Shown here one piece after another: positions 14,240-32,000 of a DNA stretch of 32,000 nucleotides. Source of the stretch: Dickeya dadantii NCPPB 898. GTDB taxonomy: Bacteria; Pseudomonadota; Gammaproteobacteria; Enterobacterales; Enterobacteriaceae. The stretch lies in the NCBI RefSeq assembly GCF_000406145.1, contig NZ_CM001976.1, positions 414,830 through 446,829 of the forward strand, given 5' to 3'. How positions within the stretch are numbered: position 1 is the stretch's first letter; each line of letters opens with the position of its first letter. The notes below the pieces were generated by a model. It was not told the origin of the DNA, searched no databases, and worked only from the letters and a program-made list of their open reading frames with translations. Both the position numbers and the translations under genes were made by a program.

Positions 14240-14282
14240 TTGCCATTTGGTTTTTATAAAAACAAATAAAATGAGATATTAT

Positions 14283-16037: not shown

Positions 16038-16134
16038 CCAGACGCTATCATGATTGGCAAACCATAAGGTCTGGTTGCTACTAATAACGTTAATTGGTTG
16101 GCTTTCGACTAATACTGATGGGAAATGACGCCAT

Positions 16135-16536
16135 TTATTTTAAATCAGCATGCTTAAATGTTTGTTCGCCAGCCTGGCTATTTGTCATTTTTAGCATGCT
16201 ATTCTCTTCTGTATAAGTGATTAAGGCGTCATTCGGGTTATCTCGCCAACGGCCTATGTAGTTAGGTTCCGAATCACTTCCAGCGGTTCGCCATAGCACT
16301 CGTGACCCTTCTATCATCTTGCACTGATATTTCCACAGGCTATTATCACTTGGCCTGTGATATTGCAAATTAACGAGATCCCCATTCACTTTTGTTTTCA
16401 TTATTTTGGGTTCTTTTGCGAACTCCATTGACATGGCTGCTTTACAGATTTCAGCATTCGAGAAGGGAGCTGAAAAAGCGGGAATAGCCATTAATGAGGT
16501 ACTTAAAATCAGAGAGAACTTAATTAAATGCTTCAT
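16135..16536 (-). CDS. Small secreted/periplasmic protein of unknown function
   Basis: 133-aa ORF with a Sec signal peptide MKHLIKFSLILSTSLMAIPAFS/AP and two Cys residues in the mature part. I recognise no family. Confidence 0.65.
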   Translation of the reverse strand: MKHLIKFSLILSTSLMAIPAFSAPFSNAEICKAAMSMEFAKEPKIMKTKVNGDLVNLQYHRPSDNSLWKYQCKMIEGSRVLWRTAGSDSEPNYIGRWRDNPNDALITYTEENSMLKMTNSQAGEQTFKHADLK

Positions 16537-16564
16537 AAACCCTCTTTATTTTGATAAAAATTTA

Positions 16565-17044
16565 TTACCATAACGATAATAATAAGGTGTGTTCCTGTAT
16601 TTCTGACGGGACAAAACCCCAGTATTGGTAGAACGCTTTTGCCTCATCAGATAACGCATGTACCAATAACGCTTTGTTGCCTACCTGCTGCGCTACATTG
16701 CGGGAGCGGAGTACCGCATCTTTCAGAAGCCCGGCACCGATCCCCATACGTTGATAACGTTCATCAACGGCTAATCGGCCAAGTACCAGAACAGGAATGG
16801 GGTCAGGCATATTGCGCCGGAATGCGCCCGGTGCAACCTGACGCTGGATGCTACCCGACGCGAGGGCATAGAACCCCACCACACGCTGTGTACCGGCTTC
16901 ACACACCACGAAGGTGCGTGAAGCGCCCAGCGTCTGATTTTTTAACGCCTTGCGTTTCAGCCATTCATTCAATGACGGCTCGGAACAATGAAAATCCACA
17001 ACTGCATGTTGAGGCAGCAATAATTCAGGTGCCGTTATTCCCAC
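16565..17044 (-). CDS. GNAT-family acetyltransferase toxin (TacT/KacT-like type II toxin)
   Basis: 159-aa ORF with a GNAT core (RLAVDERYQRMGIGAGLLKDAV...AFYQYWGF). It overlaps the upstream DUF1778-type antitoxin gene by 10 nt, the canonical TacAT arrangement. Confidence 0.85.
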   Translation of the reverse strand: MGITAPELLLPQHAVVDFHCSEPSLNEWLKRKALKNQTLGASRTFVVCEAGTQRVVGFYALASGSIQRQVAPGAFRRNMPDPIPVLVLGRLAVDERYQRMGIGAGLLKDAVLRSRNVAQQVGNKALLVHALSDEAKAFYQYWGFVPSEIQEHTLLLSLW

Positions 17045-17307
17045 GGAGATTTCCTGTTCAGTAATGCATTCACACGCGGATTATCTGTGACTGGTGATTC
17101 CAACACCTGAATGAAAGCATCATATTGTTCATCATTGACCAGAAACAGCCTTTGATCCAACAACACATCCTCAGCCTCACGGCAGGCAGCATCAAGGATA
17201 AACTCTGTTCTTGATTTCGACAGCAATTTAGCGGCGACATCAATCAGCTCCCGCTGTGATGCTTTAGCACGAATATTAATCGGCATTTCTTTTGGCTCTG
17301 TTCGCAT
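17035..17307 (-). CDS. DUF1778-family (TacA/KacA-like) antitoxin
   Basis: The start is trimmed to the ATG at 17307 (RBS AGAGAGG). MRTEPKEMPINIRAKASQRELIDVAAKLLSKSRTEFILDAACREAEDVLLDQRLFLVNDEQYDAFIQVLESP is a ribbon-helix-helix type and matches the DUF1778 pattern (I.lR......li..AA...g.s.teFil..a...A..vl.d). Confidence 0.85.
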   Translation of the reverse strand: MRTEPKEMPINIRAKASQRELIDVAAKLLSKSRTEFILDAACREAEDVLLDQRLFLVNDEQYDAFIQVLESPVTDNPRVNALLNRKSPWE

Positions 17308-17593
17308 CGTGACCTCTCTGTGTAGCGAATAGCTATACATCCAGTATAGTGAACGGTACAGCAAATAGCCACACGCCATTCATGAACAACATTTTCGTCA
17401 TAGCGGGGTTGGGTTAGGATCTGTTACACGGAATCGAACCGGAACGGATAAGAATTAATCTTATTGATAAAATGACGTGATATAGCTCATTGAAAACATG
17501 GGCTAAAAATGAAGTGGGGGCATAAAAGGGGGCACCTAAATTAGGTTGGTGAGTATTAAATTTTATTATTCAATCAATTACATCATTTTGCGT

Positions 17594-17611
17594 GTCCGGC
17601 CTTCGCACCAA
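17594..17611 (+). repeat. Direct repeat DR2: 18-nt remnant of the tRNA-Leu 3' end (junction of segments A and B)
   Basis: GTCCGGCCTTCGCACCAA equals tRNA positions 11418-11436 minus one G. It carries the same 1-nt deletion as DR3. Confidence 0.75.
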
Positions 17612-17623
17612 CAGTATATAAAT

Positions 17624-17647
17624 AGACGTCAACCGACGTCTTTTTTT
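17624..17647 (+). terminator. Hairpin plus T-run following DR2
   Basis: AGACGTC-AACC-GACGTCT followed by T7 (17641-17647). It occupies the position a tRNA terminator would. Confidence 0.5.
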
Positions 17648-17796
17648 ATGCCTGAAATCCAGTATTTACCCGCCTTTCCCGCTATATTCATTCTCTCAGG
17701 GTCAACCGACATCTATGTACATCTACCAACAGTTGTTGGTACAGCTGATGGTATTTTCGGTTCGATAATGCTTGTACCAACGGGGAGGAAATAAGT

Positions 17797-18255
17797 ATGG
17801 CGCTCACTGATATCAAAGTCAGAACAGCCAAGCCTTCGGATAAGCAATACAAGCTGACCGACGGCAATGGTATGCATCTGCTGGTTCATCCCAATGGCTC
17901 AAAGTATTGGCGCTTTCGTTTCGGTGGTAAACAGCACCTGATAGCGTTTGGCGTCTATCCCGAAGTTTCACTGGCTGATGCCAGACATAAAAGAGAAGCT
18001 GCCAGTGGACTGACCCCGCCACGGCTTTCGCACCATGGCCTGTAGCTTACTGATTGAATCAGGATTATGGTCGAGGGATGCGATGGAACGGCAGATGAGC
18101 CACATGGAGCGCAACTCGGTACGAGCGGCGTATATCCTAAAGCTGAGTATCTGGATGAGCGTAAGCTTATGCTGCAATGGTGGGCAGATTTTCTGGATGC
18201 TAATAGGGAAAAGGCGGTGAGTGCGTTTGATTTTGGTAAGATAAAAAGTCGTTAG
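17797..18255 (+). pseudogene. P4-type integrase pseudogene (large internal deletion plus frameshift)
   Basis: The N-terminal roughly 65 aa (MALTDIKVRTAKPSDKQYKLTDGNGMHLLVHPNGSKYW...SLADARHKREAA) align with the intact integrase at 11655. At about 18000-18030 the sequence jumps to the C-terminal HGFRTMACSLLIESGLWSRDAMERQMSHMERNSVRAAYI, which is in another frame. A further frameshift near 18135 precedes AEYLDERKLMLQWWADFLDANRE. Confidence 0.85.
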
Positions 18256-18281: not shown

Positions 18282-19139
18282 ATGTATACGGATGAGTTAT
18301 TGGCTATTCAATCTGATTGGTCAAAAAAATCATTGTTATTAATGAGAAAACTTCTAACATTAATGACTCCGGTTGCTTTATTTGACCAATGGACTAAAGA
18401 AGAGCAAAGTACGATTGGTTTTTTGCTTGCTGCATCAGCAAGGTCAACAGAAAGTCTATTTTTATTGACCTCATATGGGCAGCTTTGGGACGCAGAAATG
18501 ATGCAAAGGGCTATCATTGAAGCATCGTTAAAATTTGTATTTCTTCTTGAATCTAGAGAAACATTTAAAGATAGGTTTAATGAATACTCAACAGCGCAAT
18601 ACGAGATATCCCTACTCAAGGATGATAATAAGGTTTTAGAGCTATTAAGCATCCTGCCTAACTCTGATGATGAAAAATGGCTCCCTTTGCGGGAACGTTT
18701 GCTTGCTGATGAGGAAAGAAAAATGATTAATGAAACGTACGATAAAAGTTATCGCAGATCTCTTGAAACGCGATGGGGGTTTACTAGTATTATAGGAAGT
18801 TTGACCCGTAGCGGAAAACTATTTCATGGGTTAAGTGAATTATCATATGGGTACTCTGTATCAAGCCATGTTCTACATGCCGATTATTTAGGGGTAGTAC
18901 TACCGATTGAAAGAGATAGTAGAGAGCATGAGAATCGATCTGCTTTACATTTGGCTCATTTGAGTAGACATATCTCTGATGCTTTCACATGCCTGATCAT
19001 GCGACTATATGCTGGATATCGATTTGTCGGGATAGATACGGCGGCCATAAATGAAGCTATTAAGAAAATAGATGATCTACAGGTACCATTTCGTGAAGAA
19101 TATAATAAATGGATAGATATAGAATACGGAGGTAAATAG
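18282..19139 (+). CDS. Hypothetical protein (AT-rich orphan)
   Basis: 285-aa ORF with an RBS AGGGGA upstream. It looks helical by eye and has no signal peptide. I cannot assign a family with confidence. Confidence 0.65.
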   Translation: MYTDELLAIQSDWSKKSLLLMRKLLTLMTPVALFDQWTKEEQSTIGFLLAASARSTESLFLLTSYGQLWDAEMMQRAIIEASLKFVFLLESRETFKDRFNEYSTAQYEISLLKDDNKVLELLSILPNSDDEKWLPLRERLLADEERKMINETYDKSYRRSLETRWGFTSIIGSLTRSGKLFHGLSELSYGYSVSSHVLHADYLGVVLPIERDSREHENRSALHLAHLSRHISDAFTCLIMRLYAGYRFVGIDTAAINEAIKKIDDLQVPFREEYNKWIDIEYGGK

Positions 19140-19685
19140 AATTAAGAACGAGCCTGTCCACTAATGCTGGGTAATATCATGAATGCAGTCCATTTTCAGA
19201 TAGTGAAAAAAATTCCACGCAAGCATTATCATAACAACAACCCTTGACACTCATACCGCCTCGAAAATTATGTTGTATCAACCAACTAATAAGGTAAAAG
19301 ATAACTATGCACAATAATATCGCAAGAACCTTTGAAAATGGTTCGTCGAGTCCATAGTAATTTTTTGTTATTAAATCAATTAATTATTAAAACTATGAGT
19401 TACATCAATATATTAGACTCTAAATTGTTCAAACTTGGTTTTTTGTGGATTTGATGGGTTAGTATACTTCAATTACACAATTGGCATGGCACTGAAGTAA
19501 GCACCGTTAGCCTTAGTAAGCTCCTTGGGACATTAGCAAGAGCTTCGCCATTCTCGGTAAAGGCAATATCGGTTAGTCCTTGGGGCACTTATACCGAGTT
19601 GAAGGGTTATCTTTGCATCGTTTACGAGGCAAAGAATATGATGTCATTCCTTTTCCTGTGAGGATGACGTTGTGTACTGATTTAT

Positions 19686-21887
19686 ATGGGGTCTCGAACT
19701 TTGGATAGCATTGTGGGAAAGCTCAATCCGCTATTGCGGCTAGCAGCCATCTCGGGCGTCGAAGCTGCGATCACATTCCATATTCTTCGGGGTGATGACT
19801 TGGATGCCCGCGATAGCAGTGGCTCAACGCCTCTGATCCTCGCCGCATCTAGGAGAAACAGCGGGGCTGTAAGGCTTCTACTTGACGCGGGGGCAAATCC
19901 GACACTTGTCGATCCAGAAGGGATGAATGCTCTAGCGCATGCCTTACGAGCCAATTGCCTAGAGACAATTGAGATACTAAGTGAGGCATTCAATATGCCA
20001 CCCTTGGAGGCCACTGAGTCAGATGAAGTAATTACCAACAATCAGGAAAAGATATCCTCTTGCTTCGATAAAATATCTGATGGCCAGGCATCGGGGAGCG
20101 AATCCCACGCAGTGGGCAAGAATATCCCTACCTCTCCTGAATATCACTTCGAGCCCATTTCCCCCAAGGCAACGACTCGATATATTTTTGAAGTCGATTC
20201 CCTTTCTCTAGATCCTCTTTCCTTGGATGCTGAATTTGAGGACAACTGGGAAGTTGAGATTAACCCTGTTGCGCCTGTTGGTGACCAACATGTTGCAGAG
20301 GCCGTCAAGAATGTTTACAAGGCGATAGGTCAACATAAGGCAGTAGATAACGACGAGGACTGGGGTGATATCGATCTCTATCTTCCTGTAATAAAATCCA
20401 TTTTAGACCATGAGGGCGTTGATTATACCCTCCGGGTTTTCCTCCTTGCAGCAATCCGCGATGGGATTATTTCTGAAGAAAACCTTGTTGAACTTTGCTT
20501 AAACGCCAACGGATCACGCAATGAAGATTTTGAGAGATTCATTGGTATTGCTGCAGGAGAGCTTGGTGCGATTGTGGACGAACAGAGTGGAGTCACTATA
20601 AATGATACCTCTCTCGATGAGTCGTCTCTTGAGGAAAAACTCCTTCTCGATGAAGCAATTGAGTTCATCAAGGATCTAGCCTCGGATCACAATGAACCGT
20701 TCAGATTTTATTCCAAGGATATCCGATGCAGGCTTCTTGAGGCCAAAGAAGAGATCGCTCTTAGTCGAGAGATGGAAGAGGCTTGGCAAGATGTGCTATC
20801 GGTCCTTGCTCAATGGCCAGAAGGACTCGCGGTGTTATTTGACTGTGCTGAAAAGGTTTTGAGAGGGGAGGTTGATGCTGGAGCGTTCAGCACTGGACCT
20901 GATTTGCTCCTAGAAGATGGGGCAACAGAACTGGAGGATGTGTACGATGAGGATGAAGAGGAAAAAGAGCATGATGCCGGCTCAGCATTTATGACTGCTA
21001 TAGCAGCCGTTCGGAGTAAGATTGGAGACTTCCAGCGAACCAAAGAAGCATTAGAAGCGGCTAAGCTAACTCGCGGATTTCTTTTTGAGCTAGCCGAACG
21101 AGCCAAAGATGATTCTAATGCAAAGGGCCTTACTGATGCTCTTGAGCGGCAGTCCTATGCTCGGGATCGCTTGATTCAGTGTAATCTTAGACTCGCTTTA
21201 TCCATTGCCAAGAAGCACCGGTGGTCAGGAGTGCCGATGGACGATCTTGTTCAAGAGGCAAACATTGGCCTTATAAAAGCGGTTGAACGCTACGACTGGC
21301 GCAGAGGTTTTCGCTTCTCTACATACGCAACGTGGTGGATTCGTCAACAGATAACACGTTCCATTGCTGACAAAAGTAGGAGTGTTAGGGCACCGGTACA
21401 CGTTCAGGATAAGGCTTGGAAGATCATACGGGAGCGCAATGAGATCGAGTTGCAGAGAGGGTACCCTGAGCGTGATATCGACACAGCTTCGCGGCTCGGA
21501 ATTCCGCTATCAAAAATATGGATTCTCCTGTCGATATTTGATGATGCAGAGTCTCTTGATGAGATCGATTTGAATATGAGTTGTGCTCGAGTGGAGCTTC
21601 TCGTGAATCGGAATGCCTCGGCACCATTTAAGCTTGTTGAGAATTCGTCTCTCTCCTCTACGCTCTCGGGAATGCTGGAAGAGTTAGATGAAAGGTCTCG
21701 CACAGTGATTATGTATCGCTTTGGATTAGGCAACATTGACGCGATGACCTTGGAAGAGGTAGGGCAGATCTTCGGGGTTACACGTGAGCGTATCCGCCAA
21801 ATAGAGTCCAAAGCGATGCAGAAACTTTCTAGTGAGAAAAGGAAGGAGATCTTGGCTTCCTTTATGAGCGAGGATGATTATCAATAA
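19686..21887 (+). CDS. Ankyrin-repeat / sigma-70-family (RpoD/RpoS-like, regions 1.2-2-3-4) fusion protein
   Basis: N-terminal ANK consensus: GSTPLILAASRRNSGAVRLLLDAGANPTLVDPEGMNALAHALRANCLETIEIL (nt about 19815-19975). Region 1.2-like: FRFYSKDIRCRLLEAKEEIALSREME. Region 2: LIQCNLRLALSIAKKH...DLVQEANIGLIKAVERYDWRRGFRFSTYATWWIRQQITRSIADKSRSVRAPVHV (nt about 21170-21400), near-identical in pattern to E. coli sigma-70 region 2. Region 4.2: TLEEVGQIFGVTRERIRQIESKAMQKL (nt about 21747-21825). Its stop codon overlaps the next gene's ATG (TAATG, 21885-21889). Confidence 0.85.
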   Translation: MGSRTLDSIVGKLNPLLRLAAISGVEAAITFHILRGDDLDARDSSGSTPLILAASRRNSGAVRLLLDAGANPTLVDPEGMNALAHALRANCLETIEILSEAFNMPPLEATESDEVITNNQEKISSCFDKISDGQASGSESHAVGKNIPTSPEYHFEPISPKATTRYIFEVDSLSLDPLSLDAEFEDNWEVEINPVAPVGDQHVAEAVKNVYKAIGQHKAVDNDEDWGDIDLYLPVIKSILDHEGVDYTLRVFLLAAIRDGIISEENLVELCLNANGSRNEDFERFIGIAAGELGAIVDEQSGVTINDTSLDESSLEEKLLLDEAIEFIKDLASDHNEPFRFYSKDIRCRLLEAKEEIALSREMEEAWQDVLSVLAQWPEGLAVLFDCAEKVLRGEVDAGAFSTGPDLLLEDGATELEDVYDEDEEEKEHDAGSAFMTAIAAVRSKIGDFQRTKEALEAAKLTRGFLFELAERAKDDSNAKGLTDALERQSYARDRLIQCNLRLALSIAKKHRWSGVPMDDLVQEANIGLIKAVERYDWRRGFRFSTYATWWIRQQITRSIADKSRSVRAPVHVQDKAWKIIRERNEIELQRGYPERDIDTASRLGIPLSKIWILLSIFDDAESLDEIDLNMSCARVELLVNRNASAPFKLVENSSLSSTLSGMLEELDERSRTVIMYRFGLGNIDAMTLEEVGQIFGVTRERIRQIESKAMQKLSSEKRKEILASFMSEDDYQ

Positions 21888-23380
21888 TGCAGAAAACCAG
21901 ATATGCGCCGCCGAAAGCCAATGCAATGATGGAGGCTCTCAGAGGGCTCGGTTATTCAACCGCAGCAGCCTTGGCTGATGTTGTAGACAACGCTGTGTCT
22001 GCAGGTTCTGCAGAGGTGTATCTGCGATTTGAATGGGATGGAACGCAAAGCTGTATTTCGATACTAGATGATGGTCATGGAATGACTGATACCGAGCTTG
22101 AGACTGCCATGACCCTTGGGACGATAAATCCTTTGGATGAAAGGACTGCGACTGATCTCGGACGTTTTGGTATGGGTCTGAAGACTGCCTCGTTTTCCCA
22201 ATGCCGTAGGCTTACTGTTGCTTCCAAGCGAGAAGGCGGAGTTCTGGTTTGTTTACGCTGGGACTTGGACGCTATCGCTACAGATCCGCAGGTTGGTTGG
22301 CGTATGTTCGAGGGACCAGCATTAGGCTCCGAGCGGTTCTTTGAACCGCTAAACGACTTAAGCTCGGGGACGCTCGTTCTTTGGGAATTAATGGACAGAG
22401 TTGTCATGCCCGGTACGAACTTGGATCACTTTGCCGACCTAATTGATGATGTGGAATCCCGTTTATCGATGACCTTCCATCGCCTTATTGAGGGGCCTCG
22501 CCCAGATTTCCGCCTGTTCATCAATGGCAAACTGGTGGTCCCTTGGGATCCGTTCATGGTTGGCCACCCTGCTAAAGCCTTGGAATCTCCCATAGAGCGC
22601 AGAATCACTCAGTCAGGAGTTTTGGAGGTCCAATGCCATGTTCTCCCGCACAAAGATAAATTATCTGACGAGGATCTTTTCAAGGCTGGCGGCCCTGACG
22701 GCTGGATATCTCAGCAAGGGTTCTATGTCTATCGTAACAAAAGACTCCTTCTGGCCGGTAGTTGGCTAGGGCTTGGAAGAGGGAGAGCATGGAGCAGGGA
22801 TGAATCGCATCGACTTGCGAGAATCCGGGTTGATATGCCGAATACCGCCGACGCAGATTGGAAGATCGATGTTAAGAAGTCCACTGCCCGACCACCGGTT
22901 TTTGTCCGTAACTGGTTGACTGGAATAGCAGAAAACACGAGAGACAGAGCTCGTAAGGTATTCGCCTTCCGAGGATCGCCGACGTCTAGGTTGAGCAGTG
23001 CTCCCATCGAGCAGACTTGGCGGGTTGAACATCTGAAGAGCGGCGTTCGATACCGCATAGATGAGACGCACCCTGCCGTCGCGGCAGTTATTGAGGTTTG
23101 TTCAGACCGAAAGCATCTTGTTAGAGCGATGCTCCGGGTTATTGAGGAGACAGTCCCTGTCCAACGGATATGGCTCGATACTGCCGAGAACAAGGACACT
23201 CCTAGAACAGGGTTTGATGGGGAACCGAACGAAGCTGTTATACAGGTTGCGAGTGTCCTTTTTAATGATTTGATCGAGCGCAAGGGACTGAGTGTTGAGG
23301 AAGCCCGTAAGTCAATGCTCAAGACTGAGCCCTTCCAAAAATATCCCTCACTAATTGCAAATTTACAGAGAGATGAATGA
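21887..23380 (+). CDS. MORC-like GHKL (HATPase_c_3-type) ATPase
   Basis: Bergerat-fold motifs are an N-box ALADVVDNAVSAGS (nt about 21974-22006), a G1 box DDGHGM (22068-22085) and a G2 box GRFGMGLKTAS. Start and stop are coupled to the neighbouring genes (TAATG upstream, ATGA downstream). Confidence 0.85.
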   Translation: MQKTRYAPPKANAMMEALRGLGYSTAAALADVVDNAVSAGSAEVYLRFEWDGTQSCISILDDGHGMTDTELETAMTLGTINPLDERTATDLGRFGMGLKTASFSQCRRLTVASKREGGVLVCLRWDLDAIATDPQVGWRMFEGPALGSERFFEPLNDLSSGTLVLWELMDRVVMPGTNLDHFADLIDDVESRLSMTFHRLIEGPRPDFRLFINGKLVVPWDPFMVGHPAKALESPIERRITQSGVLEVQCHVLPHKDKLSDEDLFKAGGPDGWISQQGFYVYRNKRLLLAGSWLGLGRGRAWSRDESHRLARIRVDMPNTADADWKIDVKKSTARPPVFVRNWLTGIAENTRDRARKVFAFRGSPTSRLSSAPIEQTWRVEHLKSGVRYRIDETHPAVAAVIEVCSDRKHLVRAMLRVIEETVPVQRIWLDTAENKDTPRTGFDGEPNEAVIQVASVLFNDLIERKGLSVEEARKSMLKTEPFQKYPSLIANLQRDE

Positions 23381-26286
23381 ACATGATGGAAGAGGTTGGC
23401 TTGCAAGCTGAGCTACTAGAAAACGTCATCGCCACGGCTCAACGGCTAGTAAAGGCAGAGAAAGATAAATCTAAGATAACCCCGGCGTTCATTGCTGAGA
23501 AGGTGAGTTTTGCCACGAAGATGTTTGCTGATGACTCACTTCACTCGGTGGATCAAAATCAGGCTATTGCCATACTAATTCAGCGTTTCAGTCACCGAAT
23601 CGGTAAGCCAACCACGTTGAAGAACGATGTAGACCATGTCGACTGGCTTTCTGCAGCGAGAAAACGTGATTGGCGCTATTGGCGTCGATATGGAGACTAC
23701 TTGGAATCCAAGCTTTCCGACGTTGTAGTCGAGGGGCTTAACGAGACCACTGATGATATCCTCAGCCTCCTGGAGGATCCAGAAAGATCGGACTCATGGG
23801 ATCGTAGGGGGCTTGTTGTCGGGCATGTGCAATCAGGCAAGACCAGCAACTACTCAGGACTAATTTGTAAGGCAGCTGATGCTGGCTATAAGATTATCAT
23901 CGTCCTTGCAGGCATGCATAATAACTTGAGGTCGCAAACTCAGATGCGGCTAGAAGAGAGTTTTCTTGGCTACGAGACGACCACTGATCGTGATGTCGGT
24001 ATACCAATAGGTGTTGCAGAGTTCGGTGATGACCTGAAGACCAACTCTGCAACAACGCGGGCTGAGAACGGTGATTTTAGTAAAGCGATTGCGAGGCGAT
24101 TTCACGGTATATCTCCAGAGGAGAGGCCATGGCTTTTCGTTGTAAAGAAGCAAAAGACCGTCCTCACAGCTCTGTTGGACTGGATTCAAAAACGAGTAGC
24201 GGACAGCACCGACTCAATTGATGGTCGCAAGCTTGTGACTAAACTTCCGCTTCTAATGATCGACGACGAGGCAGATAACGCGTCAGTTGATACTGGAGAG
24301 CAGATATTCAAGGATGATGGTACACCTGACGAAGAGCATCAGCCTAAGACTATTAACAGTCTTATTCGTCAGATCCTTCATACCTTCACTAGGAAGGCGT
24401 ATGTTGGCTATACTGCAACGCCTTTTGCCAACATTTTTATCCACCACAAAGGTGCAACAGCGAAGGAAGGCCCTGATCTTTTCCCTCGTTCGTTCATCAT
24501 CAATTTAGCAGCTCCATCCAATTACGTTGGTCCTACGCAGATGTTTGGCAAGATGACGAAGGATGGCCGTACGGAGGGGCTGCCTCTATCTAGAAACATC
24601 TGTGATCATTACGACCCCAAGTCAGAGTCTGGGTGGATGCCACCAAAGCACAAGAAGACTCATATCCCTAATTACAACGGCGAAGAGGCGATTCCTCCAT
24701 CGTTGCAGCAAGCTATCTACACGTTCATTTTGTCATGTGCTGCCCGTCAATTACGAGGGCAAGGCACCCAACATAGCTCCATGCTGATTCACGTCACCCG
24801 TTTCGTTGATGTTCAAAAGCTCGTGTGCGAACAGGTCGATAAGACGGTACGTCGCATGCGGCAGCGTATAACTCGAGGAATGGGGGCGGAGGAGATTCTG
24901 GGACAGTTGCACCAACTTTGGAACGATGACTTTCTTCCTGTTCGAGACAAAGTTGCAGTGCTCCTACCAAAAGAGGAGTGTCCTCCGAAAATGCCGACTT
25001 GGAATGATATTCTCGCTGTTCTGCCTGAGGTGCTGGAGGATATAGAGGTTCGCTCTATTAATGGTACTGCCAAGGATGCTCTCGATTATGCAACACTAGG
25101 TGCGGCTTTGAAAGTAATTGCGATAGGGGGCGACAAGCTTGCTCGTGGACTTACGTTGGAAGGGCTATGTGTAAGCTACTTTGTGCGCACAACGAAGATG
25201 TATGACACGCTAATGCAGATGGGGCGCTGGTTCGGTTATCGCCCTGGTTATCTGGACTTATGTAGACTGTACACATCCCCCGACTTGGTGAGATGGTTTG
25301 GGCATATTGCTGATGCTTCGGAGGAACTCCGTGATGAGTTCGATTTCATGGCAGAAGCAAAGCTCACTCCAGAGCAGTATGGGCTTAAAGTGATGTCACA
25401 TGATGTTATGACTGTAACTTCCCCCTTGAAGATGCGTAATTCACAGACTCTTTCATTTACTTATAGTGGAGCGCGATCCCAAACTATCCTCTTTCATCGT
25501 GATTCCAAAATTCAGCAGCAAAATCTCGATGCTACAGATGCTTTGGTTATGTCTCTTGGCACCTATTGGATAGAATCACCGAAATATGAACGCGAAGGAA
25601 ACCCTGATTCTTGGCCTGATGCACGTCTTTGGAGGGATGTAGGTGTTTCCAAAGTTCTTGATTTTCTCAACACCTATTCAACGTATCCTGCGCCCCGCGC
25701 AAATGCAGCTGTATTGTCCGAATTTATCTCGAAAATGGTTGATACAGGCCAATTAACCAAATGGAGTGTCGCTTTGCTCGGGGGCGGTAATGGCAATGGG
25801 GAAATCCATACTTTCCCCGGAGGAGTTCCCTCAAAGAAGTACTTAATCCGTAAAACCGAAGAATTGGGGTCGCTTGACCAGCAGGAGGCTAAGACCTTCG
25901 CTATTGGCGTGCTTACTGACCCGAAAGATGAAAGTATAGATCTTAGCGATGACATTTGGCATAAAGCCTTAAATTTAACTCGTGCTGCTTGGAAACCGGA
26001 CCCTGCTCGTGGCCGCGACAAACAACCAGATTTTCCAAGCGGCAAAGGTATCCGAGAGATTCGTGGGAAGCTCGGTGGTGAGACTGACAGAGGACTACTG
26101 CTACTCTACCCACTTTCCCCCCATTCGTCCTACAAAGGTAAACAACAGGACGAGTTAATTGTTCCCGGATGGAATAAACCAATCATGGCTTTCGCTATTG
26201 CTTTCCCTGCTAGCGACAAAGCGATTGAGGTGGAGTACAAAGCTAACCTGCTTTATTGGATGCAAGAATATGGCCCGTCAGAGTGA
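23377..26286 (+). CDS. Z1-domain protein with SF2-type NTPase core
   Basis: Walker A GHVQSGKTSNYSG (23821-23847). DEAD-like Walker B LMIDDEADNAS (24256-24276). Motif III-like GYTATPFAN. ARGLTLEGLCVSYF and QMGRWFGYRPGY resemble motif VI and the Z1 signature. The ATGA overlaps the ATPase stop (23377-23380). Confidence 0.85.
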   Translation: MNMMEEVGLQAELLENVIATAQRLVKAEKDKSKITPAFIAEKVSFATKMFADDSLHSVDQNQAIAILIQRFSHRIGKPTTLKNDVDHVDWLSAARKRDWRYWRRYGDYLESKLSDVVVEGLNETTDDILSLLEDPERSDSWDRRGLVVGHVQSGKTSNYSGLICKAADAGYKIIIVLAGMHNNLRSQTQMRLEESFLGYETTTDRDVGIPIGVAEFGDDLKTNSATTRAENGDFSKAIARRFHGISPEERPWLFVVKKQKTVLTALLDWIQKRVADSTDSIDGRKLVTKLPLLMIDDEADNASVDTGEQIFKDDGTPDEEHQPKTINSLIRQILHTFTRKAYVGYTATPFANIFIHHKGATAKEGPDLFPRSFIINLAAPSNYVGPTQMFGKMTKDGRTEGLPLSRNICDHYDPKSESGWMPPKHKKTHIPNYNGEEAIPPSLQQAIYTFILSCAARQLRGQGTQHSSMLIHVTRFVDVQKLVCEQVDKTVRRMRQRITRGMGAEEILGQLHQLWNDDFLPVRDKVAVLLPKEECPPKMPTWNDILAVLPEVLEDIEVRSINGTAKDALDYATLGAALKVIAIGGDKLARGLTLEGLCVSYFVRTTKMYDTLMQMGRWFGYRPGYLDLCRLYTSPDLVRWFGHIADASEELRDEFDFMAEAKLTPEQYGLKVMSHDVMTVTSPLKMRNSQTLSFTYSGARSQTILFHRDSKIQQQNLDATDALVMSLGTYWIESPKYEREGNPDSWPDARLWRDVGVSKVLDFLNTYSTYPAPRANAAVLSEFISKMVDTGQLTKWSVALLGGGNGNGEIHTFPGGVPSKKYLIRKTEELGSLDQQEAKTFAIGVLTDPKDESIDLSDDIWHKALNLTRAAWKPDPARGRDKQPDFPSGKGIREIRGKLGGETDRGLLLLYPLSPHSSYKGKQQDELIVPGWNKPIMAFAIAFPASDKAIEVEYKANLLYWMQEYGPSE

Positions 26287-27283
26287 AGAATTCATTTTAG
26301 CTTGGCTGTCGCTCTCCAGTGACAGTGAAGTTCCAGGCTGGCAGGCTATTTCGCTACCGTCTTCAGGGGCCGTCGAGCTTCAGGCTGGTCGGCGCTTGCC
26401 GGATAACGCTGAGGCAGTTTTGTTCTCTTTCCCTACAGCGCGTTTAGCTCGTGCTGAGAAGCTGCCCGAGGGCAAGGGATTCTTGGTGGAGAAGGCAGAA
26501 GCTATGGGGACGAATGATCTCCTATTAGCATTGACCCGACAGGAGGAAGGGAACTTAGAGTTGTTTACTTTAATGGTCTGCGATGTTGTTGGTGCAATAG
26601 ATGAAGGAGTTGCTGAAGGCGTTGCAGAGTCTGGCCTCTTGCGAATTCTGGTCAGACGAGTACTTGCGTGGCAACAGTTTATGTCTCGCGGTTTGAGCCC
26701 TCTAGGTCCTGAAGCAGAGTTGGGCCTTATGGGAGAGCTCTACTTTATGACCCTTCTTCTTGATTTGCAGTTGCCGCCCATGGAGGTTCTGAGTGCATGG
26801 GTTGGTCCCGATGATGCGCCTCAAGATTTCCTTCTAGGTGATGGGGCAATCGAAGTGAAAGCGACTATGTCTTCCTCTGGCTTTCCCGTTAGGATAAGTT
26901 CGCTGGAGCAATTAGACGACGCTGTCTCTTCGCCATTGTTCTTGGCGGCTATCAGGTTTATCAGGCTGGAGGAAGGGTTTACCTTGCCAGAGATAGTTGC
27001 CGAGATTGAGCAACGTCTTAAAGGCCAGCCCGCATCGGTCAACTTTTTTTGTGAGCGGCTCATGCTTGTTGGATACTCTTGGGCTCATATGAGCAACTAC
27101 ACTCGAAGATTTAAACCAAAAGAGAAACTTTATTTTTCAATATCCGAAGGTTTTCCTCGTTTAACTCTAGGATCCGTCCCCATCGGAGTGACGCGAGCGC
27201 AGTACGAAATAAACTTGGACCATGCTAGGGACTTCCTTACTGAGCTTGATGTGGTTCTCAAAAAACTAGGAGTTAGTGGATGA
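26270..27283 (+). CDS. PD-(D/E)XK-motif protein (putative nuclease)
   Basis: The start is trimmed to the ATG at 26270 (MARQSEEFILAW), which overlaps the Z1 gene by 17 nt. The motif PQDFLLGDGAIEVKAT has the D codon at 26825 and E-V-K at 26852-26860, i.e. D-x10-E-x-K. Confidence 0.75.
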   Translation: MARQSEEFILAWLSLSSDSEVPGWQAISLPSSGAVELQAGRRLPDNAEAVLFSFPTARLARAEKLPEGKGFLVEKAEAMGTNDLLLALTRQEEGNLELFTLMVCDVVGAIDEGVAEGVAESGLLRILVRRVLAWQQFMSRGLSPLGPEAELGLMGELYFMTLLLDLQLPPMEVLSAWVGPDDAPQDFLLGDGAIEVKATMSSSGFPVRISSLEQLDDAVSSPLFLAAIRFIRLEEGFTLPEIVAEIEQRLKGQPASVNFFCERLMLVGYSWAHMSNYTRRFKPKEKLYFSISEGFPRLTLGSVPIGVTRAQYEINLDHARDFLTELDVVLKKLGVSG

Positions 27284-29106
27284 CCCTTGATGATTTTCTG
27301 TCTGAAACCCGGGCTGAAATAGCGGCTCAAATGAGCGATGGTTCTTCCTTCACGGAATTGATCTTTTGTGAGGTGGTGATGCAACACCTCATGGAAGCAG
27401 GAATGACTTTTGAACCCGTTGTTTGTCATTTTCAAGGGAAAGTCGGTAATGCGAATCTGAGGCTGAGTGGCTACACCATTTCTGAAGATCTTGACCAACT
27501 TGACCTGTTTGTCAGTCTCTACGAGGGATTCGAGGTTCTAACGCCGATCCAAGAGCAAGATACAAAGATGGCCGCTCAGCATTGTGTTCGCTTTCTTGAA
27601 CTTTGTGCAACGGGCCGTCTTCTGAACAAACTCGATCCATCAAGCGATGTCTACTCACTCGCCCTTATTATCAGCGAGATATATGATAGTTTGGAACAAG
27701 TACGTGTATTTGTTCTCACGGATGGCGTTGCCAAGTCCAAGAGTTTTAAACCCCGTGATGTTGGAGGTAAGACAGTTCGACTCGAGGTTATGGACATAGA
27801 GCGACTCTTTCGACATCGTTCCGAGGGCAAGCCGCGCGACGAACTTGTGATCGACTTCAAGGATGTTTCAGGTTCCCCACTTCCGTGTGTTTATATTCCT
27901 GGAGATACAGGAGATTACGATTACGCACTGACCGCCATCCCTGGTGAGGCTTTGCGGTTCATCTACGAGAAGTTTGGCCCTAGGCTCCTTGAAGCCAACG
28001 TACGGTCTTTTCTTAGCGTCAAATCTAGAGGGGTCAATGCAGGTATCCAAAACACCTTACGCTCAGCACCAGAACGCTTTATGGCCTTCAACAATGGCAT
28101 CGTTCTTGTGGCCGACGAGATGAAGCTCGAACGGGCTAATGACGGCTCTCCTGGAATCATTTGGTTACGTGGAATGCAGATAGTGAACGGTGGTCAAACT
28201 ACTGCCTCTATCTATTTCGCAAAGAAGAAATACTCGGATACCGACTTAAGCAAGGTCAGGGTCCCTGCAAAGATCATTGTCATTAAGGAGGCTGACCCTA
28301 CAAAAGAAGAATCGCTAGTCTCCGATATCTCACGATATGCTAACTCCCAAAATTCAGTGCGGCAGTCGGATCTCTCAGCGAATAAGCCATTCCATGTTGA
28401 GGTAGAGAGACAGTCACTGGCAATTTATTGTCCAGATGGTGTTGGCCGTTGGTTTTATGAGCGAGCAGCGGGAAGCTACAATACACTTCTCATCCGTGAG
28501 GGAACAACCCCAGCTAGGCTTCGTGCACTGAAGGATTCTGTGCCAACATCTCGCAAGATCACCAAGACCGAGTTGGCGAAATATTTCATGGCTTGGGATG
28601 TTAGACCGGAGATAGTTAGCCTTGGAACGCAGAAGTGTTTTGAGCGCTTCATGACTATGCTCAGTGAGGTTGAAGCGGCTGGGAAACCTATTGTATCAGA
28701 TTCAGTTTTCTTTAAAACGTTAGTTGCCAAAGCCATTGTGTTCAAGATCGTTCACAAAACGGCCCGTCCGCACGTTTCCGCTTTCCTTGCAAACGTTGCT
28801 GCTTACACCGTAGCAGTTGTGGCCGATTACTATCGCGATACCTTTGATTTGGAGAAAGTTTGGCTTCGACAGAGTGTTTCACCACAATTAATAGAGCAAG
28901 TCAAGGTCTGGTCCCTTGAGGTGAACAACCGTCTTCACGAGACAGCCAAAGGAAAGATGATTTCGGAATGGGCCAAACGACCCGAATGCCGGGAGGAAAT
29001 GTTTGCACGTCCTTTCTCTCCACCGTCAGTGGATATTCCTGAATTACGTCGACCTGAATTTGTTCAAGTGAGGCAAGAACATTCAGAAATTCCCGCAGAG
29101 GATTGA
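27280..29106 (+). CDS. AIPR-family (abortive infection phage resistance-like) protein
   Basis: 608-aa ORF. ...FNNGIVLVADEM...GMQIVNGGQTTASIYF, with the VNGGQT motif at 28186-28200, is typical of the AIPR/Abi-like family. The ATGA overlaps the previous gene (27280-27283). Confidence 0.8.
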   Translation: MTLDDFLSETRAEIAAQMSDGSSFTELIFCEVVMQHLMEAGMTFEPVVCHFQGKVGNANLRLSGYTISEDLDQLDLFVSLYEGFEVLTPIQEQDTKMAAQHCVRFLELCATGRLLNKLDPSSDVYSLALIISEIYDSLEQVRVFVLTDGVAKSKSFKPRDVGGKTVRLEVMDIERLFRHRSEGKPRDELVIDFKDVSGSPLPCVYIPGDTGDYDYALTAIPGEALRFIYEKFGPRLLEANVRSFLSVKSRGVNAGIQNTLRSAPERFMAFNNGIVLVADEMKLERANDGSPGIIWLRGMQIVNGGQTTASIYFAKKKYSDTDLSKVRVPAKIIVIKEADPTKEESLVSDISRYANSQNSVRQSDLSANKPFHVEVERQSLAIYCPDGVGRWFYERAAGSYNTLLIREGTTPARLRALKDSVPTSRKITKTELAKYFMAWDVRPEIVSLGTQKCFERFMTMLSEVEAAGKPIVSDSVFFKTLVAKAIVFKIVHKTARPHVSAFLANVAAYTVAVVADYYRDTFDLEKVWLRQSVSPQLIEQVKVWSLEVNNRLHETAKGKMISEWAKRPECREEMFARPFSPPSVDIPELRRPEFVQVRQEHSEIPAED

Positions 29107-29203
29107 GTGCCAAATATTGATTAGCTACAGCCATTACAAGCTATTTACTGAAGCAATGGCTGATATATAAACTGTCTATAATGGGGCGTAGGCCTTGGAA
29201 CTT

Positions 29204-30775
29204 CTACGCTAAAATATTGGCTACAATTCCTGCGATTTGGTTTGCCAAAAATGGAGGAACGGCATTCCCGACTTGGTGATACTGCTGAGTTCTTCCACCT
29301 TGGAAAAAATAGTTATCTGGGAATGTTTGCAATCTGGCAGCCTCCCTTACTGTCAAGCTTCTACATTGTAATAGGTCGTAATGTATGAAGTAGTGGCCAT
29401 CTTTCGATATGTGGCTCGTGATTGTTGTTGATGGACTATTTTCAATTTGCACTCTAAATCGGTCTGAAAATTTACCTGTTTTCCAGTTTTTATGCGCTGG
29501 GGCTAAACCTGGCAAGTTAAATTCTTTGTGCCCTTTAGGAGAACGCTTATGAATTGATGCAAAGCATGCTGCATAACCGTAGCGTGCCAGATCGTCTATA
29601 CGATGCCCACGAGCCTCATGGTTTAGCCAGACTTTCAGCCGTGGCTCCAAAAACCATTTATCTAGATAGTCATGAGCAGTCTGACCGGAAGAATCACCTT
29701 TAGGCATCCGTGTACCACCAGTGTTAGTAACATGGCCAATTTCATTCGAAGCTTTTTCCAATCGGCTTGATAAAGTTTTTTCGTGTCCCGGAAACTTGGC
29801 GGCGTGTTTGGCAAGCTGGTGTAATTGCCAACGAACCTGATTTTTCCATTGTTCGCTAGTATCTTCTTGTCTACTCAAAAGGCTTCTTAAGGGCGGAAGG
29901 TTTCCAATCGCCTCTTTAACGCTCACTGTAGCTTGCGCTAACAATTTCGGTAGTTTTTCTTTGTAGCGATTTTCTCGGATCCCTAACAAAATGACTCTGT
30001 GACGGGCTTGAGGTACACCATACTCTTCAGTACGAATGATATACTTCGTAGCATCTAATTGGCTTGGGTCATCACCATCACAGAACTCCTGCTCGCTCAC
30101 TAATGAAACGATTCGATAGCACTGTCCATTTGAGGAGGAGTGGAGCGCGGCACTTGGGTTGGCTAGATCTTTCAAAATTTGATTGAATATTTTTTCGCCA
30201 TTTATTTTGGACGAAAGAATTCCCTTCACATTTTCCATCACAAAAATATCAGGCTGGTAACTCTGGATAATTCGGAGATACTCACGATAGAGGAAGTGAC
30301 GGTGATCCTCTTCTGGTTTGTAATCGGCAATTCCTTTGTTTCTGGCTCTACCAACAAGTGAGTAGGCTTGACAAGGTGGACCGCCTATCAAAACCCAAGG
30401 CTGGTCAGTTCCATGTTTTTCCTGCATTTCTTGAATGGCTTCATCGAGAGCTGTATTTCCGTTCGGACTACCGATTTCAATGCACATTGCTTCTTTGCCA
30501 GCTAGCTCCCAGAGATCTTTCGTCTCGGTGCTGAATGGTGTGTCTGCCTCACCATTACAAAAGCGATAATAGTCATCGAGATTGTCTGGTCTATTGTTAG
30601 TCAACAATCTATAGAACGCTCTGAGGCGGAGTGTTTGATGGGCGATAGAATCTTTTTCAGCAGAAACAGCAATTTGAAAAACATCGCCATTTTTAAATGA
30701 TGAAAAGCCTTCCCCTAATCCTCCTGGTCCGGCAAAAAGGTCTACTACAGGAATCGGCAACAAAATGCTACTCAT
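29204..30775 (-). CDS. DNA (cytosine-5)-methyltransferase
   Basis: Canonical C5-MTase motifs are I DLFAGPGGLGEGF, IV GGPPCQAYS (nt about 30361-30387), VI ENVKG, VIII QARHRVILLG and X QVGNAVPPFLA, with a long variable (TRD) region. Convergent with the AIPR gene. Confidence 0.93.
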   Translation of the reverse strand: MSSILLPIPVVDLFAGPGGLGEGFSSFKNGDVFQIAVSAEKDSIAHQTLRLRAFYRLLTNNRPDNLDDYYRFCNGEADTPFSTETKDLWELAGKEAMCIEIGSPNGNTALDEAIQEMQEKHGTDQPWVLIGGPPCQAYSLVGRARNKGIADYKPEEDHRHFLYREYLRIIQSYQPDIFVMENVKGILSSKINGEKIFNQILKDLANPSAALHSSSNGQCYRIVSLVSEQEFCDGDDPSQLDATKYIIRTEEYGVPQARHRVILLGIRENRYKEKLPKLLAQATVSVKEAIGNLPPLRSLLSRQEDTSEQWKNQVRWQLHQLAKHAAKFPGHEKTLSSRLEKASNEIGHVTNTGGTRMPKGDSSGQTAHDYLDKWFLEPRLKVWLNHEARGHRIDDLARYGYAACFASIHKRSPKGHKEFNLPGLAPAHKNWKTGKFSDRFRVQIENSPSTTITSHISKDGHYFIHYDLLQCRSLTVREAARLQTFPDNYFFQGGRTQQYHQVGNAVPPFLANQIAGIVANILA

Positions 30776-30797
30776 GGTATATATCGGTGGGTTTAGT

Positions 30798-30812
30798 GGT
30801 ATCCAGGATACC
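30798..30812. promoter_or_regulatory. Perfect 15-bp palindrome in the 65-bp MTase/vsr divergent intergenic region (candidate operator)
   Basis: GGTATCC-A-GGATACC. It contains CCAGG at 30803-30807, and a second CCAGG follows at 30811-30815. It lies 23 nt from the MTase ATG and 29 nt from the vsr ATG. Confidence 0.35.
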
Positions 30813-30840
30813 AGGAAGAGAAGCGAACGGAAAGAAATCT

Positions 30841-31299
30841 ATGGATGTCGTCGATCGTAAGACTCGTTCCCGCATGATGTCCGGTATTAAGGGAAAAAAT
30901 ACACAACCGGAATTGATGATACGGAAATTTTTGCATGCACAAGGTTTTAGGTACCGTTTGCATGTAAGCAGTCTACCGGGTAAACCTGATATCGTCTTGC
31001 CACGGTACAAATTGTGCATTTTTGTCCACGGTTGCTTCTGGCATCGTCATGATGGATGCAGGTATGCTACGACCCCAAAAACCAGACCAGAATTCTGGAT
31101 GAAAAAATTTGCTGTCAATAGGCAGCGTGATATCCAAGTCAAAATGCAGCTACATGCTGCGGGATGGCGTGTATTCGAAATCTGGGAATGTGGTTTCAGA
31201 GACCAAAGCGATGAGTCTATCAATTGGCTGCCAGAGTATATTAACAGTGATATCGCGATGCTCAGTTGGCCAGACTATGTTTGTAGTGGGGATCGATGA
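30841..31299 (+). CDS. vsr: Very short patch repair endonuclease
   Basis: The start is trimmed to the ATG at 30841. MDVVDRKTRSRMMSGIKGKNTQPELMIRKFLHAQGFRYRLHVSSLPGKPDIVLPRYKLCIFVHGCFWHRH...TRPEFWMKKF..NRQRD...GWRVFEIWEC aligns with E. coli Vsr blocks (TRSKNM, LPGRPDFV, FTHGCFWHHH, TEFW, GWRVLIVWEC). Confidence 0.9.
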   Translation: MDVVDRKTRSRMMSGIKGKNTQPELMIRKFLHAQGFRYRLHVSSLPGKPDIVLPRYKLCIFVHGCFWHRHDGCRYATTPKTRPEFWMKKFAVNRQRDIQVKMQLHAAGWRVFEIWECGFRDQSDESINWLPEYINSDIAMLSWPDYVCSGDR

Positions 31300-31547
31300 C
31301 TATCTGCGTTCTGATCCTGAATATGCTCGAGCCATAACTGGCTTAATTAAAGATGTCGGCGCAATGGTTTATCCGGTGATAAACAGCAAAAACATGAGTC
31401 CTAGCTGTATTTGGAAACGGTTCAAAGAATGTTTACGATGAAAGGCGTTAACCATTTTAGCAAAACTCAAGATGTATTGGTCCAATATCCTGTAGTTTTT
31501 CACTACAATTCTGACTAAACTTTCTGCGCGACCCGGCGGTGATATAG

Positions 31548-31821
31548 ATATTATTACTTGCCGAAATATCGGCGACGCACAAATTCGTACCGGATGCGTT
31601 TATCGAACGGTTCAACCGGGCGTACCGTACAGAAATACTGGATCTTTACCTGTTCAGGACGCTGAATGAAGCCCGGGAAATCATAGAGCTCTGGCTGGCT
31701 GAATATAACAGCGAGCGGCCCCATGAATCCCTGAATAACCTGACGCCGGAAGAGTACCGGCTGATGGCTGAAAAACCGGAAATCTCAAAAAGTGCGTGGA
31801 ACTAAAACGGGTGTGCTTACA
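31548..31821 (+). mobile_element. IS3-family transposase C-terminal remnant (5'-truncated) with probable right IS end
   Basis: The frame ending at TAA 31803-31805 reads ...PDAFIERFNRAYRTEILDLYLFRTLNEAREIIELWLAEYNSERPHESLNNLTPEEYRLMAEKPEISKSAWN. This is the tail of an rve (DDE) domain in IS3-type OrfB. There is no upstream catalytic region, and in-frame stops lie at 31512 and 31545. The sequence ends ...CTTACA near 31821. Confidence 0.75.
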
Positions 31822-31947
31822 GTATGACTTTATACCTACGAATAACGTCTATTTTTTGTGCGGATTTTGACTCGCGGGTACAAGTGCGGGTATAACTATT
31901 TATTCCTGCTAATAAACTACATTTATATCAGTCTATTAGGTGTGAAA

Positions 31948-32000
31948 TTCGAGTCCGGCCTTCGCACCAAAATTCAAAAATCAAGCCACCTTCGGGTGGC
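31948..32000 (+). repeat. Direct repeat DR3 (attR): displaced tRNA-Leu 3' end plus terminator hairpin, running to the window edge
   Basis: TTCGAGTCCGGCCTTCGCACCAAAATTCAAAAATCAAGCCACCTTCGGGTGGC. Relative to DR1 it has one G deleted (CTTCGGCACC to CTTCGCACC) and one T to C change that perfects the hairpin GCCACC/GGTGGC. Confidence 0.85.

Follow-up and report, generated by a model that had tools for sequence, protein, structure and literature searches.

A seven-gene locus in a tRNA-Leu island of Dickeya dadantii NCPPB 898: a probable diverged Mza anti-phage system with linked cytosine methylase and Vsr genes

We describe a seven-gene locus at positions 19686-31299 of a 32,000-nucleotide (nt) stretch of Dickeya dadantii NCPPB 898 (contig NZ_CM001976.1, positions 414,830 to 446,829 of the forward strand), the whole of which we call the window. 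The locus very probably belongs to the Mza (MzaABCDE) anti-phage family as a diverged member, in the common form that comes with a C5 cytosine methylase and the endonuclease Vsr, carried as cargo of a ~14-kb tRNA-Leu island beside lptG. Five forward-strand genes come first. The opening gene, mzaA (19686-21887), encodes a protein of 733 amino acids (aa) with ankyrin repeats at about residues 14-100, a conserved middle region, an acidic stretch, and sigma-70 regions 2-4 at about residues 480-730 (Pfam Ank_2, Sigma70_r2, and Sigma70_r4). It is followed by mzaB (21887-23380, 497 aa), encoding a MORC/MutL-like GHKL ATPase (HATPase_c_3, 1.5e-28); mzaC (23377-26286, 969 aa), encoding a Z1-domain superfamily-2 NTPase that is a putative translocase or helicase (Z1, 7e-85); mzaD (26270-27283, 337 aa from its ATG), encoding a DUF4420 PD-(D/E)XK nuclease (DUF4420, 4e-67); and mzaE (27280-29106, 608 aa), encoding an AIPR protein (AIPR_N, 7e-48; AIPR, 2e-89). 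Beyond these lie dcm, on the reverse strand (29204-30775, 523 aa), for a C5 cytosine DNA methyltransferase (DNA_methylase, 3e-46), and vsr, on the forward strand (30841-31299), for a very-short-patch (T:G mismatch) repair endonuclease (Vsr, 1e-31). An earlier description of the window, which we call the sequence-only reading, had assigned these domains, and Pfam confirms every one of its calls.

The five forward genes overlap at every junction. The mzaA stop and mzaB start have one base in common (TAATG at 21885-21889), ATGA overlaps join mzaB to mzaC (23377-23380) and mzaD to mzaE (27280-27283), all read directly from the sequence, and mzaC and mzaD overlap by 17 nt (26270-26286) with mzaD started at ATG 26270. 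The longest mzaD open reading frame (ORF) begins at TTG 26159; we took ATG 26270 as the start because the NCBIfam alignment begins a few residues past it and the same 17-nt overlap is found in Escherichia coli and Yersinia rohdei. The annotated overlaps of E. coli mzaABCDE measure 4, 4, 17, and 14 nt, and those of Y. rohdei, annotated or called, 1, 4, 17, and 4 nt. This arrangement is not due to chance: the gene order recurs in 80 loci from many phyla, and the overlaps recur in E. coli and Y. rohdei. At the other end of the operon dcm is convergent, the mzaE and dcm stops lying 97 nt apart, while dcm and vsr diverge across a spacer of 65 nt if vsr begins at ATG 30841, a start preferred over the alternative at 30697 because the Vsr homology (TIGR00632) begins at ORF residue 49. 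The seven genes, four start/stop overlaps, and 97-nt convergent gap of the sequence-only reading thus all lie where it had placed them, and the overlapping codons support the operon coupling that it proposed. Its further step, to one stoichiometric complex, goes too far: the overlaps indicate co-expression, and the co-evolution of MzaA-E across related loci (Spearman 0.61-0.86 between their pairwise identities) would be compatible with a complex.

All five operon proteins match the PADLOC MzaA-E models, with E values from 3.5e-62 (MzaA) to 2.7e-302 (1e-173 for MzaB); the same search of the seven proteins, a check that had been suggested for the locus, returned DrmMII for the methylase. The five proteins also match, at near full length, the NCBIfam models of the “MZA anti-phage system” (NF041931-NF041935): MzaA at 1e-140 (471 bits against a cut-off of 800, model positions 1-716 of 726), MzaB at 5e-214 (711 against 850, positions 1-478 of 480), MzaC at E=0 (1157 against 1500, positions 6-795 of 806), MzaD at 2.6e-100 (336 against 420, positions 2-326 of 326), and MzaE at 2e-268 (892 against 1050, positions 1-593 of 593). 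Counting against the assignment, all five scores fall under the equivalog cut-offs by which NCBI assigns the Mza name, and it is because of this that identical D. dadantii proteins are named only generically there (“sigma-70 family”, “AIPR family”). The cut-offs are fitted to the Salmonella/E. coli clade, and proteins ~60% identical to the Dickeya MzaE do carry the NCBI name MzaE. Together with that naming and the profile matches, a gene order and overlaps like those of E. coli mzaABCDE support the identification. The five genes are co-directional and run in the order sigma factor, GHKL ATPase, Z1 NTPase, PD-(D/E)XK, AIPR; MzaA belongs to the sigma-70 family and has ankyrin repeats at its N-terminus; and the catalytic motifs are intact (GHKL N-, G1-, and G2-boxes; Walker A, DEAD, and motifs III and VI; D...ExK).

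The Mza system (“Mza” in PADLOC, “Gao_Mza” in defence-system surveys) is known from Salmonella enterica and E. coli; PMC9523054 attributes it to Gao et al. 2020 (Science 369:1077) and calls it “validated”. As our reference we used the RefSeq-annotated mzaABCDE of E. coli, present in 55 of 5,426 complete genomes, of which one locus was inspected. It shares with the Dickeya locus the gene order, the domain of each gene, and the overlaps, including the 17 nt of mzaC/mzaD; its MzaA likewise combines ankyrin repeats with sigma-70, and the E. coli copy likewise lies in a tRNA-Leu island with an integrase. The two differ in sequence, with identities of 40% for MzaA (sigma part only), 50% for MzaB, 49% for MzaC, 37% for MzaD, and 52% for MzaE; the Dickeya copy, known from sequence alone, also differs from both the E. 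coli and Salmonella forms (37-52% identity) in adding a convergent C5-methylase and Vsr. What is new here is a diverged, so far unannotated copy of a system whose family is known and validated and whose genomic context comparative genomics had already described, and the assignment has annotation value, since NCBI gives the proteins of the locus generic names only.

That context was set out by Iyer, Abhiman and Aravind in 2008 as neighbourhoods of a MORC-like GHKL ATPase, a distinct superfamily-II helicase, a restriction-fold nuclease, AIPR, a cytosine methylase, and Vsr (PMC2292703). The co-occurrence of GHKL, Z1, PD-(D/E)XK, and AIPR proteins with Dcm and Vsr, which the sequence-only reading had mentioned, is thus stated in print, and we quantify it below over related loci. 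The MORC/paraMORC restriction-modification (R-M) neighbourhoods of that paper comprise the same gene set; it is a purely comparative work, and the word “sigma” is absent from its text. A Serratia study has since found Mza over-represented in an lptG-flanked hotspot (bioRxiv 10.1101/2024.01.28.577318). The same study describes SDIC2, from Serratia LptG-YjiA islands, which occupies that hotspot, has Mza-like domains, and protects both E. coli and Serratia; SDIC2 was derived from genes that PADLOC left unclassified, whereas the Dickeya locus matches PADLOC Mza strongly, the two being compared by description only.

MzaA residues 471-727 are 39% identical to E. coli RpoD 356-611, and two segments are nearly unchanged, FSTYATWWIRQ.ITRSIAD (regions 2.3/2.4) and TLEEVG..F.VTRERIRQIE (region 4.2). 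These regions of sigma-70 bear the residues that recognise the -10 and -35 elements. By this likeness MzaA should bind core polymerase and read ordinary promoters. The sigma gene had been taken as an extra to the module; it is instead the canonical mzaA, found in nearly all relatives and translationally coupled to mzaB. The ankyrin-plus-sigma architecture occurs in 49 of the 55 MzaA relatives that we aligned, as well as in E. coli MzaA, and mzaA overlaps mzaB in most related loci. The locus prompts one to ask why an immune operon should have a sigma-70-like factor of its own. Among the 55 aligned proteins, 19 show region 1.2, and 7 have very strong matches to the sigma-70 “non-essential region” model (best 1.2e-61), so that some MzaA lineages look, by these matches, like recent derivatives of a housekeeping sigma factor. 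In two alphaproteobacterial loci (L059 5692-8481, Paracoccaceae; L062 6013-8472, Rhodovulum), MzaA additionally matches, at its C-terminus, the DNA-binding N-terminal part of GcrA (1.7e-15 and 2.7e-17). Caulobacter GcrA binds sigma-70 and prefers methylated promoters.

The remaining core proteins preserve their motifs throughout 50 complete loci. The invariant motifs are the N-box D..DN, DxGxG, and GRFGxGxK in MzaB, whose closest solved structures are human MORC4 and MORC2; Walker A GxVQSGKT, DDEAD, GYTATPFAN, and QMGRWFGYR in MzaC; D...EVK in MzaD; and NNG..D, VNGGQT, and D..N..H in the central AIPR core of MzaE, whose C-terminal region is helical. A sequence search of the PDB with MzaC, MzaD, and MzaE found no relatives, nor did one with an MzaE profile, and an exact-sequence look-up of MzaC gave no match. 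We considered the VNGGQT motif of MzaE as the mark of a ParB/DUF262-like NTPase, and found no support for this.

The dcm product scores 139 bits with TIGR00675 dcm (cut-off 101) and has the motifs FAGPGG, PPCQ, ENV, QARHR, and GNAVPP; an identical protein is annotated in D. dadantii. The vsr product scores 140 bits with TIGR00632 (cut-off 98). We did not take as evidence of the methylase target an automated “BspRI” label on a Serratia homologue. The DrmMII match (1.8e-95), the best for this methylase in PADLOC, recalls class 2 DISARM, which is likewise a multi-gene, helicase-containing system with a C5-methylase. In DISARM, too, methylation is not known to be a simple on/off protection. The other six proteins of the locus match no DISARM model in PADLOC (DrmA, the DUF1998 protein DrmB, and DrmC or DrmD/E are all missing), and the effectors are unrelated, so the locus is not DISARM. 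The spacer between dcm and vsr contains a perfect palindrome, GGTATCC-A-GGATACC (30797-30811), with CCAGG at its centre and a second CCAGG across its right end (30809-30813); CCAGG is also the E. coli Dcm site. The palindrome is kept in Y. rohdei (L086 15533-15547), and Aeromonas retains its right half only. It may be a candidate operator or a methylation-sensitive promoter element.

To place the locus among its relatives we fetched 80 loci with MzaC 47-81% identical to that of the window, from Proteobacteria, Acidobacteria, Chloroflexi, Firmicutes, Bacteroidetes, Verrucomicrobia, and Spirochaetes, and compared layouts in the 74 that have both mzaB and mzaE; methylases and Vsr were counted by iterative profile search over all ORFs of the 80. 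Homologues of MzaC 75-92% identical also occur in Yersinia, Aeromonas, Pseudomonas, Achromobacter, Limnobacter, and many metagenomes. The gene order is conserved from mzaA through mzaE. Of the 80 loci, 69 have a C5-methylase and 65 have Vsr, and only 5 of the 74 lack both; 3 of these 5 are on contigs that end within 444 nt of mzaE, and the other 2, from Enterobacter and Mixta, belong to the E. coli-type clade. In the commonest layout vsr lies 2-49 nt past mzaE on the same strand and is followed by a convergent methylase; the layout of the window, with dcm convergent on mzaE and vsr divergent from dcm, recurs in seven loci and in Y. rohdei. Across loci the cassette occupies many positions and orientations. 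Dcm identity correlates with Vsr (0.58), and with the Mza proteins only at 0.13-0.42. Loci with MzaB-E 87-92% identical can have Dcm proteins that are 28-47% identical and of different size classes (in L060 and L070, for example, Dcm identity is 43%). By these comparisons the methylase-Vsr pair is a swappable cassette under a near-constant Mza core. We looked among MzaA-E for a specificity subunit that co-varies with the methylase, and none of the five tracks Dcm.

Vsr can also be lost while the methylase and Mza remain: in Y. rohdei (L086 15579-16800) vsr is cut to a 39-residue product before IS21-type genes (IstB and a Mu-transposase-like protein), probably by an IS21-type insertion, and in Aeromonas (L087 15380-16100) no vsr gene is called after the methylase. 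The operon itself can be mosaic. Loci L030 and L024 are 69-75% identical to the window in MzaB and 80-84% in MzaE, and only 52-54% in MzaC, for which L001 reaches 81%; from these identities, mzaC seems to recombine independently of its neighbours. The experimentally tested Mza systems represent one clade, which is without the methylase-Vsr pair, whereas almost all other members carry the pair in interchangeable versions. The comparative result therefore bears on how Mza separates self from non-self.

The published experiments concern E. coli mzaABCDE, which restricts T4(C) and T4(hmC) by a factor of 10^3-10^4 and glucosylated T4 less strongly; growth of the cells is not arrested by any of the T4 variants, whatever the multiplicity of infection (bioRxiv 10.1101/2022.06.16.496414). 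In the same work, purified E. coli MzaD cuts phage DNA in vitro, with nuclease activity paralleling defence, and MzaD active-site mutants lose protection only against glucosylated T4. These results support the anti-phage role that the sequence-only reading had suggested, since the proteins belong to the Mza family and the E. coli homologue protects against T4. They also amend its statement that neither phenotype nor mechanism had been defined by experiment: the module has a name and a phenotype, as the E. coli copy restricts T4 and its MzaD cuts DNA, while the statement stands for the mechanism, on which our literature search found no paper. Listeria strains with a “methyltransferase-encoding mza” show genome-wide GCWGC modification.

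The explanation that we favour overall, with slightly more confidence than doubt, is that the locus is an Mza member working in a restriction-like way with methylation as its mark of self. For the mechanism in its particulars, an ATP-driven, DNA-degrading complex that we mostly infer, our confidence and doubt are evenly balanced. MzaB would act as a MORC/MutL-like ATP-driven clamp, MzaC as a Z1 superfamily-2 motor, MzaD as a PD-(D/E)XK nuclease, and MzaE as an accessory or second nuclease, and MzaB-E together would degrade incoming phage DNA directly, the host cell not being killed. Such direct targeting of DNA, rather than cell suicide, is suggested because E. coli mzaABCDE protects without growth arrest and MzaD cuts DNA (bioRxiv 10.1101/2022.06.16.496414). 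Dcm would put 5-methylcytosine on the host chromosome as the self signal; Vsr would mend the T:G mismatches that arise when 5-methylcytosine is deaminated, limiting the mutational cost, and may cooperate with the MutL-like MzaB. Since the methylase cassette is freely exchanged, any read-out of methylation cannot rest on a matched target sequence, and the Mza core would probably sense the presence or density of methylation or some other general feature of DNA. MzaA, which has ankyrin repeats in place of region 1.1, would most likely control or insulate expression or sense infection; its gene stands ahead of the effector genes and overlaps them, like the controller (C) genes of R-M systems. Type II R-M systems with a C protein, such as PvuII and Esp1396I, likewise have a regulator ahead of and overlapping the nuclease genes and a separately and convergently transcribed methylase, and likewise form a mobile unit. 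In those systems a new host must be methylated before restriction begins. Unlike them, the Dickeya locus has as regulator a full sigma-70-type protein with ankyrin repeats, not a small helix-turn-helix protein; its effector would comprise four proteins and depend on ATP; and no matched specificity was found.

A second effector beside MzaD is plausible because the MzaD mutants lose protection only against glucosylated T4 and because the N-domain of MzaE matches nuclease folds. The AlphaFold model of full-length MzaE (predicted local distance difference test, pLDDT, 72; predicted TM-score, pTM, 0.39) is of low confidence in the central AIPR core, and a fold search with it gave weak matches only. 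The N-domain modelled separately with AlphaFold2 (residues 1-190) reaches pLDDT 87 and pTM 0.84, and its best Foldseek matches are FokI, MspJI, AF1548, McrC, DdmD, HamA, R2 endonuclease, and N.BspD6I, nearly all of restriction-endonuclease fold. Invariant acidic residues of the N-domain are D75, D148, E169, and D172. Tentatively, the modelled N-domain has a restriction-endonuclease-like fold and may be a second nuclease-like module, which would account for the residual defence of the MzaD mutants. MzaE also bears on an abortive-infection reading, in which the AIPR protein, related to AbiU, kills or arrests the infected cell while the other proteins serve as sensors. The central region of MzaE matches PADLOC AbiU at 6.6e-24, and the AIPR family takes its name from abortive-infection genes (PMC2292703); this reading is nevertheless improbable, given that E. 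coli mzaABCDE cells undergo no growth arrest at any multiplicity of infection and that nuclease activity on phage DNA parallels defence.

Several observations weigh against restriction with a methylation self-mark. The tested systems of the E. coli/Salmonella clade are without a linked methylase or Vsr and yet are tolerated and active in E. coli, so that not every Mza system needs a dedicated methylase. E. coli-grown T4 with unmodified cytosine is strongly restricted, and host Dcm methylation, if it was on that DNA, was not protective. No Mza protein follows the methylase type, and no 5-methylcytosine-reading domain was identified. With E no lower than 0.013 and TM no higher than 0.42, the fold matches for the N-domain of MzaE are weak, and the domain is without an assigned canonical catalytic motif. 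Finally, a complex of the Dickeya proteins and the sigma activity of MzaA are predictions. R-M of the classical kind (types I-III), with matched specificities, is not supported, because no Mza protein tracks the methylase type; the methylase and Mza do not co-vary, and neither dcm nor vsr lies within 6-12 kb of mzaABCDE in E. coli, Enterobacter, and Mixta, a statement about the loci that leaves room for a chromosomal Dcm elsewhere.

The same observations underlie the main rival, in which Mza ignores methylation and is triggered by infection, with MzaA or another subunit sensing a phage protein or DNA end, and Dcm-Vsr is a companion with a role of its own: as an orphan methylase it might blunt other restriction systems, stabilise the island, or affect gene expression. 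E. coli-type systems work without dcm and vsr, the cassette is swapped independently of the core and stands in many positions and orientations, and MzaA is the fastest-evolving core protein (57% identity where MzaB-E show ~89%), which would fit an arms race with phage factors. A companion without a link to Mza would not, however, stay within 10 kb in ~69 of 74 loci of many phyla, nor would one expect vsr to follow mzaE co-directionally at a distance of 2-49 nt in more than 20 of them. We regard this rival as rather unlikely, though it deserves serious attention.

Dependence on methylation in the opposite sense, a type IV-like restriction of methylated or hypermodified foreign DNA, would suit the ties of eukaryotic MORC ATPases to DNA methylation and the type IV enzymes (MspJI, McrC) among the MzaE Foldseek matches. 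Systems of that type have no cognate methylase and require modified DNA. The Dickeya system bears its own active-looking C5-methylase, which a system that killed methylated DNA would not carry, and E. coli Mza restricts plain-cytosine T4 at least as well as modified T4; we give this reading almost no credence. Only a little less remote is a mobile DNA-repair unit, in which the MutL-like ATPase, helicase, nucleases, and Vsr form a self-contained very-short-patch pathway serving the attached methylase. Iyer 2008 had already drawn the MutL/UvrD/Vsr parallel (PMC2292703), and vsr is often co-oriented with the operon. Against it, phage protection by homologues that have neither dcm nor vsr amounts to three to four orders of magnitude; a dGTPase and a toxin-antitoxin pair are neighbours of the locus in a defence island; and a repair pathway would have no use for a sigma factor or an AIPR protein.

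As a speculation, E. coli and Salmonella Mza could rely on the chromosomal Dcm-Vsr of the host, which would reconcile the favoured self-mark reading with its methylation-independent rival; the strong restriction of cytosine T4 grown in E. coli speaks mildly against such outsourcing (bioRxiv 10.1101/2022.06.16.496414). A bolder version, which we hold to be unlikely, is that the MORC-type clamp and the motor read cytosine methylation regardless of the methylase target, that any Dcm-Vsr cassette is pluggable and the tested E. coli/Salmonella systems use that of the host, and that MzaA serves to sense, or to decoy, those phage factors whose target is sigma-70. The locus bears in this way on whether prokaryotic MORC-type ATPases read DNA methylation, as has been proposed for the origin of eukaryotic MORC; sequence-independent reading of methylation by Mza would, if true, be a bacterial precedent for the eukaryotic link between MORC and DNA methylation.

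The backbone of the window runs through lptF-lptG to tRNA-Leu(CAA), and three copies of the tRNA-Leu 3' end (11413-11466, 17589-17621, and 31948-32000) delimit two tandem islands. The sequence-only reading's placement of the locus in a tRNA-linked island next to defence cargo is thereby confirmed, the tRNA being tRNA-Leu and the cargo a dGTPase and a TacA/GNAT toxin-antitoxin pair. Island 2 (~14 kb) carries the Mza locus. Its left end (17589-18234, forward) includes a degenerate copy of the tRNA-Leu 3' end (17589-17621), the repeat families D1, D2, and D4, and a decayed P4-type integrase (17797-18234, forward; Arm-DNA-bind_3, 1e-20) with stops in its translation. A DUF5677 gene (18282-19139) precedes mzaA, and a transposase C-terminal fragment (31548-31802, forward; rve_3, 1.8e-19) lies between vsr and the island end. 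The right end, attR (31948-32000, forward), directly repeats the tRNA-Leu 3' end together with the sequence after it: 31964-32000 is 97% identical to 11430-11466, and 31948-31980 matches 11413-11445. In Y. rohdei this site is occupied by the same cargo, and the integrase is intact. Neither the DUF5677 gene nor the 546-nt AT-rich spacer that follows it has a counterpart beside Mza in the 80 loci, and we do not count them as part of the system. The spacer has the best sigma-70-like promoter match of the region (TTGACA-16-AATTAT, 19244-19271), such matches being no more frequent than chance: a scan of 19000-32000 gave 13 promoter and 7 terminator sites against 16.1 and 12.1 expected.

Island 1 (11351-17621) is a separate tRNA-Leu island with an intact P4-type integrase (11655-12923), a defence-type dGTPase (13022-14239; PADLOC, 1.9e-110), a DUF6119 protein (14247-15911), and, on the reverse strand, the TacA antitoxin/GNAT toxin pair (16565-17379). 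The dGTPase and DUF6119 genes are low in G+C (~30%) and may be a two-gene unit. An Rfam search of the window found nothing in the Mza locus and matched only tRNA-Leu and Ysr276, a Yersinia antisense small RNA, which lies at 7765-7956, upstream of lptF in the chromosomal backbone (181 bits, E 1e-54).

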